From the NCBI GenBank assembly GCA_019746485.1, contig JAIERW010000022.1, forward strand, positions 3,280 through 67,279: a stretch of 64,000 bases of DNA. Direction: 5' to 3'. This document shows positions 40,224-43,200 of the stretch, piece by piece (within the stretch, counting starts at the first letter, position 1; every line of letters begins with the position of its first letter). Source of the DNA: Candidatus Babeliales bacterium (GTDB lineage: Bacteria > Babelota > Babeliae > Babelales > RVW-14). The notes below the pieces were generated by a model that made no database searches, was not told where the DNA came from, and was given only the letters and a program-made list of their open reading frames with translations. Made by a program: the position numbers and the translations under genes.

Positions 40224-43200
40224 TTATTGAATTGCGCACCAAGTACTTGATGAAGCTGGTGCTGCTGGCGCGGGATCATCTTGAATTTGAGATTCTTGAA
40301 GTGCGCGTGGTGTGGCTAGAGGATCGAGTATCATGAATTCTGCCACCGTTTCCTGGAGTCTGCGTTTAGCTTCTAGTTTGATGGTATCATCGTTCATAAA
40401 CGCTTGTAATCTTTCAATACCATAAAACTCTCCGGTCACGTGCTTGCTTGTTGCAAGAATTGTTTTGATAAGTAGATCAGATACAGCAGATATATCCCTT
40501 GCTATTCCCGTCATCTGAATACGAAGCAGTGCACTTTGTAAGCCCTTTTCAAATGCTTCACCGTGCTGAGCAAGTTTTATAAAAAGCCTCAAGCTTTCCT
40601 GTTTGAGCGCAGCGTCTGCATTTGCGCTACTCGTAATATGACTTACTCCTGCAAATCGATGAGTCATGCAAAAATAAGCTGCCTCGGCTGCAGGCTTAAA
40701 TGCAACGCTGAGTCCGCTTTCTACAAGTTTGGTGAGAAGCTCTAATGGTTTTTTGTGGCTCATGCTATCCATAAAGAGATCGATAGTTGCTTGGTGAGCA
40801 TAGTTAGCGGCTTCTTCGATTGAGTGACCATTTTTAGTAAGGAGCCTGTACCATTCGAGTGCTTTAACGCGTTTGCTGATATCGGGCTCAGGTTGTGGAT
40901 TTCTCATTATGCGAGCCATTAAAGGTAATTGGGTAGCGGTGGCATAGCTGGCAGTAAGCTTCTTTAATTCATTAATTGCAGGTTCGTGGTGGTGTGCAAC
41001 AAGTTTCTCAAGAATTGCCCAATGCTGTTCACGTGTCCTATAATCTTTATGTGCGCAGTGTTTGAGTGCAGTATGAGTAAGATTTTCCAGCATTTGGTGA
41101 TCACCGGTGCTGTGTGCTATCACTACACATTGTTCTAGAATTTGCGCTCCTGCATAGGTTGAATGTGTTTGATTGCTCAATTTATCAACAAAGTCATGCA
41201 GCGTGTTCTTAAATTGTGGATTTTTTGTAAATCTTTGAACAGCAGTTAAATGTTCTACCAGAATATTTGCAAGACTTCTTTGATAAGCAAGATCTTCGGT
41301 TAGTTCAAATGATGTAATAAGTTGTGAAAGCAAAGAAATACTATCTGAGGTTGTGTCAGGGTTTTGCATGATCGTTCTGACAATTCTAAGCCTCGTACGC
41401 ACATCTAAAAGGTCACACATAAAAAGTAATCGGTAATGCGCATAGCGTGGTTCAAGCCCATAAAGATTGGAAAGCATGAACAATACTGGGTCAGCGTTGT
41501 CAAAAAGTTTGTTGTTCATATATTCAGCTAGATTGTTCTGATACGCTTCTTTTGCCTCTTGGCCTTCCATGCGCTCGGCATAAGCATGATTCAATGGATT
41601 AACAAAAATGGTAAAAAATGAACGAGCTTTTTTGAGCAAAATTGTTTGACCAATATTTTGATTATCAAGTTTTTTTAAGTCGAAATTTGGGGCGGCTAAT
41701 TCCCAACCACATTGTTGGCATACGCGTGCAAAATAGGTTGCATTAAAGTTTGCATCAAAAAAGACATCATTTAGTTCGCTCGAGGGTGTTGCTGACGAGC
41801 TTGCTGCTTGTGCTTCAAACAAGTTAAGTCCGAGCAAGTCATTGAGCATGATAATAATATTTTGCATCCATGGCATAATTTCATAGAGCTGATAGCCAGC
41901 ATCTGGCGCAACAAGAAGGAATTTGTTGCCGTTTACCTTTAACGTTTCCAACGTAATATCTTGGCTGTCACGCTTAAAGGTGACTGTTGAGCGTTTAGCA
42001 TTGTCTGGTATTGCGCCGCCTGGAAGTTTTATAAAACCACAGAATTTTTTCTTACCCTTTTTGTCGGTAATTTGTGTGGCATCCATTGTGTAGGAACTGC
42101 CTGGTAGTTTAATTTTGGCATAGGTAATGTACGGTTGGTTTTGAACAAGGTTGCTCCAGTCTTGGTGGACTTTAAGTCTGTTTGTATCATCTTCTGCATT
42201 GTTAGTTGCGTCTTGTGTTTTTGTTGCATAAAAATTATCGAGTTTTTCGGGCGCGTTAGGTGTGAGCAGTTTGTTGCCAAAGGTACGTGTTTCTTGGTCG
42301 TATGTTGCAATGTTACACAAATTGCGAATGGTTGTTTCTACGCAATCGGCAACCTTAACAACGTCAAACATAACGGTTGCATACTCAGGCAAGTAAGGGA
42401 TTGATTGGCCAAACTTTTGGCACATAAGCTCGGTATACACAACATCTGCCAGATTGGCATGGTTGGTGAGGTGATCAAAAATATCTTTGCCGTCAAGATG
42501 GTTTAAGCTTTCTGCCATGGCCTGTTGAATTTCTTTGTGGGCATTGTCTTCAAACATATCCGTACCATTAAGATTGTGCGCTTCTGGCGTAAGAAACTCT
42601 TGTGGCAACGATTGCACATAAGCAATCAAGTCATGTTTATCGTGTGCTTTTCTGTAAAGCCAGGTCAGCAAAATATGTTGGGTAGCATAGTGTTCATAAG
42701 CCCCTCGATAATTTTTTTCGCTTGGCTCAAAAACACTCGGGATGAGCGATGAGCTTGCTGGGTCTGCCGGTGCTGGCTTGCATTCGGCCAGCGAAGCAAT
42801 AATCAAATCAACAAATTTTGCAACATGCACGTTCTTTTCGATTGCTTCCAGTTTTGAAAGTGCTTGCTTAATTTTCGGTGCATCAATTTTGACTTGTAAA
42901 ACAAAAATTGCTTCATCAAGATTGAATAGTTGTCTTGCTTGTGCTTCTTTTTTTCTTGCTGCGCGTGATTTTAAGTAGTTTTGATGGCGAGCGTCACGCG
43001 CTTCTGGGCTATTGTCATGGTGTTCATGTGTCAAAATACCATTTGTGGTACGTTGTTTTTTGGTTGTAAGTTCGGCTTTTTGTCTGCCAAAGCGTTCATG
43101 TTTTCTCGAATGTTGCGGTTGTTTGTCGTTTCTGGTGCAAAGTCTCTGTGCTGTATTTTCTGGCGCGGTTTCCAAGCGTCCGCGTTTTCTTGAAGGCTGT

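Follow-up and report, generated by a model that had tools for sequence, protein, structure and literature searches.

A CAIQ terminus on a giant protein of an uncultured Dependentiae bacterium, a predicted host-prenylation signal

We describe here a gene within a 64,000-nucleotide stretch of DNA (the window; positions 3,280 to 67,279 of contig JAIERW010000022.1, assembly GCA_019746485.1) from an uncultured Babeliales bacterium, a member of the Dependentiae (TM6). The gene lies on the minus strand (40224..43901) and encodes a giant protein of 1225 residues that ends in CAIQ, a tetrapeptide of the CaaX type. CAIQ is canonical for farnesyltransferase (FTase) by established specificity rules, with isoleucine at the a2 position and glutamine at X. 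We favour, with moderate confidence, the reading that CAIQ is a working prenylation signal and that the protein is a lineage-specific secreted effector farnesylated by its host; prenylation of this single gene product is a prediction. Amoebae and other protists are the hosts of Dependentiae isolates (PMC4378268, PMC6561590). The genome analyzed (G000) is available as a 1.26-Mb assembly of 37 contigs with 42% GC, rated 59% complete, and its relatives within the family and the order have genome sizes of 0.8-1.9 Mb.

The locus and the encoded protein

The minus strand from 40238 to 40224 reads TGC GCA ATT CAA TAA, placing the CaaX box (Cys1222-Ala-Ile-Gln1225) at 40227..40238 and the stop codon at 40224-40226, as first described. 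The reading frame has no internal stops and its product ends ...PAAPASSSTWCAIQ (also given as ...DDPAPAAPASSSTWCAIQ and ...IQDDPAPAAPASSSTWCAIQ), so that the defining feature of a CaaX protein, a cysteine at -4 followed by a1-a2-X with an aliphatic a2 at the extreme C-terminus, is present.

Two paralogous genes precede it on the same strand. Giant paralog 1 (1167 residues, 48006..51509) ends ...IIDKIRINKI and giant paralog 2 (1359 residues, 43914..47993) has the acidic tail ...SSSTPVTDDE; neither carries a CaaX box, in agreement with the preliminary description of this DNA, which gave their ends as DKIRINKI and TPVTDDE. The same description spoke of three giant paralogs, which is the number in the window, but the genome encodes at least six, with one more on each of contigs C35, C28 and C29. 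A CaaX end is thus found on only one of at least six paralogs in this incomplete genome.

The three giants form a single operon with the CaaX gene at its end. This follows from the 12-nucleotide gaps between the genes, each of which contains AGGAGG (the ribosome-binding site of the CaaX gene among them), from a promoter-like site ahead of the three genes (TTTACA-17-TAGAAT with an upstream TG, 51623..51651, minus strand) that is the best of the region, and from a GC-rich hairpin with a U-run (40176..40210, minus strand; -18 kcal/mol, z -2.7), likely the intrinsic terminator of the operon, which lies directly 3' of the CAIQ stop codon.

The CaaX giant has a layered organization, given here with minus-strand positions. 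A Sec-type signal peptide (MKLLRSLFTFVLFFGLANQA, 43842..43901), recognized from its sequence by a hydrophobicity heuristic and present in all paralogs, would be cleaved after ANQA. An AlphaFold2 model of residues 26-1225, built from an input alignment of 58 sequences, has a mean predicted local distance difference test score (pLDDT) of 83 and a predicted template-modeling score of 0.79. In this model a conserved N-terminal helical domain (residues 26-213, 43263..43826, pLDDT above 90) is followed by a disordered poly-Ser and basic linker (residues 214-295, 43017..43262; model residues 189-270, pLDDT below 50). Next comes the conserved core of the family, with helical and alpha/beta parts (residues 296-785, 41547..43016), which is delimited by alignments and by 483 family clusters and has an unmatched fold. 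A C-terminal alpha-solenoid of HEAT/ARM-like helical hairpins (residues 786-1191, 40329..41546), assigned from the predicted secondary structure, contains about 20 paired helices and is the variable module of the family, with no homolog detected beyond this gene. The protein closes with a disordered Pro/Ala/Ser-rich tail bearing the CaaX box (residues 1192-1225, 40227..40328; model residues 1167-1200), and pLDDT stays below 50 throughout these 34 residues. CAIQ is therefore predicted to sit at the end of an exposed 34-residue tail behind the solenoid, and the flexible, accessible linker before the cysteine that is expected of a CaaX protein is present in the model; a buried C-terminus had been named in advance as something that would count against prenylation.

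The disordered linker contains an element resembling a nuclear localization signal (NLS), PSRKRGR (residues 236-242, 43176-43196), which was found by motif scan and matches the Kosugi class-2 pattern (P/R)xxKR(^DE)(K/R) as a pattern match only. NLS-like KRxR motifs occupy conserved alignment columns in the linkers of all giant paralogs, and in the CaaX-less neighbors they take the form of RSEKRQR in one and the bipartite KRQRPRSPHKEKVPKRQR in the other.

Neither Pfam nor PDB sequence searches with the CaaX giant gave anything significant, and the core, modeled alone at pLDDT 68, has no Pfam, PDB-sequence or Foldseek match. Foldseek matched only the solenoid, weakly and with low TM scores, to a designed armadillo protein, exportin-1, importin-beta and CAND1 (best E 6e-4); Pfam HEAT_2 reaches 24.4 bits, below its cut-off of 27.7, and does so only in the sister-species ortholog described below. 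A functional identity for the core or the whole protein was accordingly sought by these three routes and set aside, the matches being of a generic alpha-solenoid. Within the core, Cys520 (42342-42344, in DCVETTIRNLCN) and His772 (41586-41588, in PxxHAYAER) do not vary among 58 diverse members of the family, and neither do Tyr594, Asn681 and Phe719. The pattern may point to a catalytic Cys/His pair; papain-like, DUB-like and transglutaminase-like hydrolases were the Cys-His enzymes considered, and the PDB offers no match for the fold.

The CaaX giant is not isolated at this locus. Six tandem ankyrin open reading frames (ORFs) lie on the opposite strand, and the translations of four of them also end in CaaX: CCIQ (33691..33702, gene 32767-33705), CSIQ (35547..35558, gene 34683-35561), CALL (37560..37571, gene 36687-37574) and CLIL (38403..38414, gene 37593-38417). 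The five CaaX termini reported earlier as clustered do lie close together, within a span of about 6.5 kb. Upstream of the ankyrin array, a 577-residue ORF (27554-29287, minus strand) begins like a signal-peptide protein and contains long stretches that are Pro/Thr/Gln-rich or coiled-coil-like.

CaaX ends across the genome and in a sister species

We scored a crude, non-overlapping set of 1055 ORFs of at least 100 residues from the whole genome for C-x-[AVILMF]-x at the exact C-terminus, using as control the same expression slid 1-11 residues inward. CaaX ends are present in 21 of the 1055 ORFs, against 0-6 at the slid positions, so that the class is about 5-fold enriched, and cysteine is commonest at position -4 (31 occurrences; the rest of the last 15 positions have 8-21 each). 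Signal-peptide-like N-termini occur on 20 of the 21 CaaX proteins (Fisher p = 2e-5), as called by a hydrophobicity heuristic that flags 51% of all ORFs. The 21 proteins comprise ten ankyrin proteins and eleven unrelated singletons, and fall into at least 12 unrelated sequence families; the enrichment therefore does not come from one expanded family. CaaX ends are carried by 19 of 879 ORFs in the sister species (G002; 1.07 of 1.6 Mb sampled), against 2-7 at slid positions. An order-wide search at the DNA level, using a pattern for CxIQ followed by a stop (TGYNNNATHCARTAR), was discarded: it gave 741 matches across 121 genomes, where the reversed pattern gave 265 but the proper control, with Cys at position -5, gave 702, and so had no power to show order-wide enrichment.

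The strongest evidence that such ends matter comes from their behavior between species. For fifteen of the 21 CaaX proteins, G002 encodes an ortholog that aligns end to end (47-89% identity) and has a CaaX terminus of its own. Among these 15 pairs the numbers of identities from position -10 to position -1 are 9, 8, 8, 7, 10, 10, 15, 9, 14 and 11: the cysteine is kept in every pair, a2 in 14 of 15 (the sole change being Met to Ile), X in 11 and a1 in nine, the flanking positions -10 to -5 being kept in 7-10. A fixed cysteine, a hydrophobic a2, a free a1 and an X drawn from Q, S, C, L and F constitute the recognition grammar of FTase and of geranylgeranyltransferase I (GGTase-I). Because the conservation of the cysteine and of a2 fits this grammar, we take the comparison as good evidence that in this genus a CaaX end acts as a functional signal, and purifying selection on such ends in the lineage is, as far as sequences can tell, clear.

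Three tandem ankyrin-family proteins elsewhere in the genome (G000 C29:24140-26715) have polybasic CaaX tails resembling that of K-Ras4B, KKQKEKCVIC, KNKKEKCAIC and EEKSKKCIIC, and these are conserved in G002.

The tail of the giant and its family

The CaaX giant is not among these fifteen proteins, and several observations weigh against a working signal in its own tail. It is one of six CaaX proteins that lack ortholog support, so that retention of the motif by selection, evident for 15 other CaaX proteins, is not seen here. A true ortholog, identified as such by a basic insert of about 55 residues (RKHER...RKK) that it shares with the CaaX giant and that is found in no other paralog, is encoded in G002 (1658 residues, contig C15, L027:11305-16281, minus strand) and is 48% identical over residues 1-922. 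After about residue 900 it is unrelated: an extended HEAT-like array leads into a GNAT acetyltransferase domain (PF13302, scoring 27 bits where the cut-off is 25.4), and the protein ends ...ALLKTLE. No other paralog found in G000, the sister species G002 or a more distant congener with a complete genome (G001) ends in CaaX, one G002 paralog running off its contig. Contig C8 of G002 begins within paralog 2, and a tandem ortholog of the CaaX gene may lie past the end of that contig. Residues 900-1225 have no relative in G001, G002, G018 or G029, in a set of 5.8 billion proteins or in the JGI metagenomes. The enrichment of the class is weaker in G001, at 12 of 1225 ORFs against 4-9 (about 6) at slid positions. 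About four CaaX ends are expected per genome by chance, about two of them on signal-peptide-like proteins; for a single protein the chance is about 0.4%, and over six paralogs about 2%. A pseudopilin-like protein encoded on contig C28, another of the CaaX matches listed in this genome, ends CSVA here, CANS in G002 and YGA in G001, and since the end is not conserved in relatives this match is probably fortuitous.

The preliminary description had proposed that orthologs be compared for the cysteine and took its absence as contrary evidence. The sister-species ortholog does lack it, which formally tells against the proposal, although what differs between the two proteins is the whole C-terminal module and not a cysteine within a conserved tail. 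As judged from this pair, the giant family swaps its C-terminal modules between sister species.

These findings bear most directly on the alternative that CAIQ carries no signal and simply happens to end a repeat module that is degenerating and evolving fast. The slid controls, which give about four such ends per 1055 ORFs, the Cys-less ortholog and paralogs, the unique and rapidly evolving C-terminal third and the evidently fortuitous CSVA end would all be expected if it were correct. It is harder to reconcile with the approximately 5-fold enrichment of a class most of whose members are kept as CaaX in the sister species, with the recurrence of CaaX on two distant members of the giant family, and with the setting of this particular box. 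We consider a chance origin possible but, on balance, unlikely. The preferred reading, that CAIQ is a working prenylation signal, draws on that setting: the giant has all of the accessory features of the supported CaaX proteins, namely a Sec leader, a disordered linker before the cysteine, isoleucine at a2 and glutamine at X.

Other origins for the tail were tried and rejected. A frameshift is not indicated, since stops soon interrupt the other 3' frames and the DNA does not resemble that of paralog 2's acidic tail, and transfer from another CaaX gene is not indicated either, the only shared bases being the 12 nucleotides that encode CAIQ in a CAIQ gene on contig C36. An exact look-up of the CaaX giant protein found it on no other contig. 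The pseudopilin-like gene adjoins a giant paralog in both species (G000 C28:18566-19021, G002 C15:255488-255943).

The wider family provides a different perspective on the distribution of the box. Searched against 1.84 billion representatives at 50% identity, a profile of the core detects 483 clusters at E < 1e-3, of which 81 reach E < 1e-30; the family is therefore large, and it is undescribed. CaaX ends are present on three of the 152 members fetched, these being the CaaX giant, P0132 (...GNWCIIS), which occurs in identical form on contigs of two independent samples, and P0139 (...DMCSVQ). CaaX thus seems to have been recruited sporadically onto the family. On a Logan contig from SRR13608732, belonging to a distant organism of 37% GC, the gene for a family member ending GNWCIIS (L112:4205-7717) is preceded by a partial ORF that ends ...RPWCSIL (L112:3-698), and the gene between the two encodes an ankyrin-UCH (ubiquitin hydrolase) protein. 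A tryptophan directly before the CaaX cysteine recurs in TWCAIQ, NWCIIS and PWCSIL.

Most giants without CaaX have instead a short acidic tail with a terminal glutamate. Examples are TPVTDDE, DSDDNE, TLADNE, GNDDDDE, TLQDDE and ILHDDE, located in the window at 43914-43934 (minus strand), in G000 at C28:19028-22633 and C29:38814-42221, and in G002 on L028, L029 and L031. Such a tail may be an alternative C-terminal address or a secretion tag of the giant family.

Route to the host, destination and precedents

If CAIQ is read as we favor, the giant would be exported by Sec as a host-directed effector and would reach the host cytosol, where FTase would farnesylate Cys1222, Rce1 would remove AIQ and ICMT would methylate the new end. 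The farnesylated protein would then be tethered to a host endomembrane: the endoplasmic reticulum (ER) or Golgi, the nuclear envelope, or an ER-derived parasite vacuole. Prenylated proteins follow a 'second signal' rule, by which, without a polybasic stretch or a second cysteine, the default destination is the endomembranes and not the plasma membrane. Neither element is found near the giant's CaaX box, which is why an endomembrane is the predicted default. The CaaX-less paralogs would stay soluble or nuclear, and the CaaX proteins of this genome seem to differ in the membrane to which they are addressed.

The earlier suggestion that the paralogs share a core but are sent to different host compartments, one lipid-anchored and the others soluble or nuclear, therefore keeps its standing as a reasonable reading by analogy. 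The predicted exposure of the CaaX tail, the NLS-like KRxR motifs in all paralogs and the Legionella precedent discussed below are consistent with it, while the ortholog without the cysteine tells against it.

Delivery is the main difficulty. The giant, of about 130 kDa, carries a Sec leader, while prenyltransferases are cytosolic. Searches of G000, G001 and G002 found neither VirB4 (PF03135, a marker of type IV secretion systems, T4SS) nor FHIPEP (PF00771, the gate of type III secretion systems, T3SS), which again weighs against our reading. Three secretins are present in each of these genomes, a result that agrees with Babela, in which a type II secretion system (T2SS) is the only secretion system reported (PMC4378268).

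On this basis it could be argued that the giant never meets host prenyltransferases, being confined to the periplasm, the bacterial surface or the lumen of the vacuole, and that its cysteine is irrelevant or serves, for example, in a disulfide. The classical Sec signal peptide and the detection of export machinery of the secretin type only, together with the T2SS as sole system reported in Babela (PMC4378268), are in keeping with this. We nevertheless regard it as very unlikely. That 15 signal-peptide proteins conserve the cysteine and a2 at their extreme end would be difficult to understand if nothing read CaaX, and the only CaaX readers known to us are cytosolic eukaryotic enzymes. The NLS-like motifs and the neighboring ankyrin repeats likewise make sense only inside a eukaryotic cell. 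Either Sec/T2SS substrates or cargo in vesicles cross the host-derived membrane by some further step, or CaaX is not read by the host; the position-specific conservation of CaaX ends favors the former. Extremely improbable is a bacterial reader of C-x-aliphatic-x, a C-terminal sorting or lipidation pathway of the Dependentiae: although all carriers are Sec substrates, we know of no bacterial system of that kind, the motif grammar with its X classes Q/S/C and L/F fits the rules of eukaryotic FTase and GGTase-I, and no prenyltransferase beta-subunit match, and with it no hint that the bacteria prenylate their own proteins, was found in G000, G001 or G002, where the control was uninformative, the control genomes giving no match either.

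The closest precedents for a host-prenylated giant are the CaaX effectors of Legionella pneumophila, AnkB (PMC2916131) and PelA-PelE and others, including PelC/PelE (PMC13081727). There too an amoeba-associated intracellular bacterium encodes several proteins with eukaryotic CaaX ends, many of them ankyrin-containing or otherwise eukaryote-like, and the expected mechanism involves host FTase, Rce1 and ICMT. The dedicated delivery that goes with membership of this class is, however, replaced here by a Sec leader and secretins: the Legionella proteins lack a Sec leader and enter the host through the Dot/Icm T4SS, whereas the Babeliales giant has the leader, in genomes with no T4SS or T3SS marker. 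The Babeliales protein also comes from another phylum and belongs to an unrelated, uncharacterized carrier family, and its lipidation is only predicted. By analogy, then, the giant would function as the CaaX effectors of Legionella do, although in a phylum and a carrier family that are both new and not through dedicated injection.

Two further Legionella cases bear on the paralogs and on the ortholog. LegG1/PieG, which has a CaaX box, is found on the pathogen vacuole, and PpgA, which has none, at the plasma membrane (PMC7157520). As is proposed for the giants, paralogs with a common core differ in compartment according to whether they carry CaaX; their domains are unrelated to those of the giants and their localization is experimental. 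A frameshift has removed the CaaX from the AnkB allele of strain Paris, which has acquired a di-lysine motif (PMC5506055). AnkB orthologs thus differ in CaaX, and a Cys-less ortholog alone does not refute function. The giants differ by a whole C-terminal module (HEAT and GNAT as opposed to a short solenoid and CaaX) and not by one frameshift.

Nuclear lamins combine an NLS with a CaaX box for farnesyl-dependent targeting to the inner nuclear membrane, the CaaX of lamin B being CAIM. The giant similarly combines PSRKRGR (residues 236-242) with a farnesyl-type CaaX resembling CAIM; it has no sequence or fold relation to lamins and the analogy is one of signals only. A lamin-style address at the nuclear envelope is conceivable but speculative. 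The more extended picture, in which Dependentiae send Sec proteins to the host cytosol by a route other than T3SS or T4SS, host prenylation of these proteins is wide, the giant is held lamin-style at the nuclear envelope and its CaaX-less paralogs are nucleoplasmic, is in our judgment improbable as a whole.

Within the Dependentiae, most putative effectors of Babela massiliensis and Chromulinavorax, ankyrin proteins and others, have Sec signal peptides, and a T2SS-like system alone was detected in these organisms (PMC4378268, PMC6561590). They share with the bacterium analyzed here their phylum and the Sec signal peptides on putative effectors; the two papers make no mention of CaaX or prenylation (PMC4378268, PMC6561590). 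Our literature search found no paper pairing Dependentiae with CaaX or prenylation, and a search for CAIQ with farnesyl gave irrelevant matches only.

What is unusual about the Babeliales giant is thus the presence of a Sec leader on a CaaX carrier in a genome in which no T3SS or T4SS marker gene was detected. The Dependentiae have no recognized effector-injection machine and almost no experimental genetics, and the conserved CaaX ends on proteins with Sec leaders provide indirect but specific evidence that secreted proteins of this phylum reach the host cytosol. The set of giant paralogs, for its part, constitutes a natural comparison, with and without, of a C-terminal address tag on one effector core.

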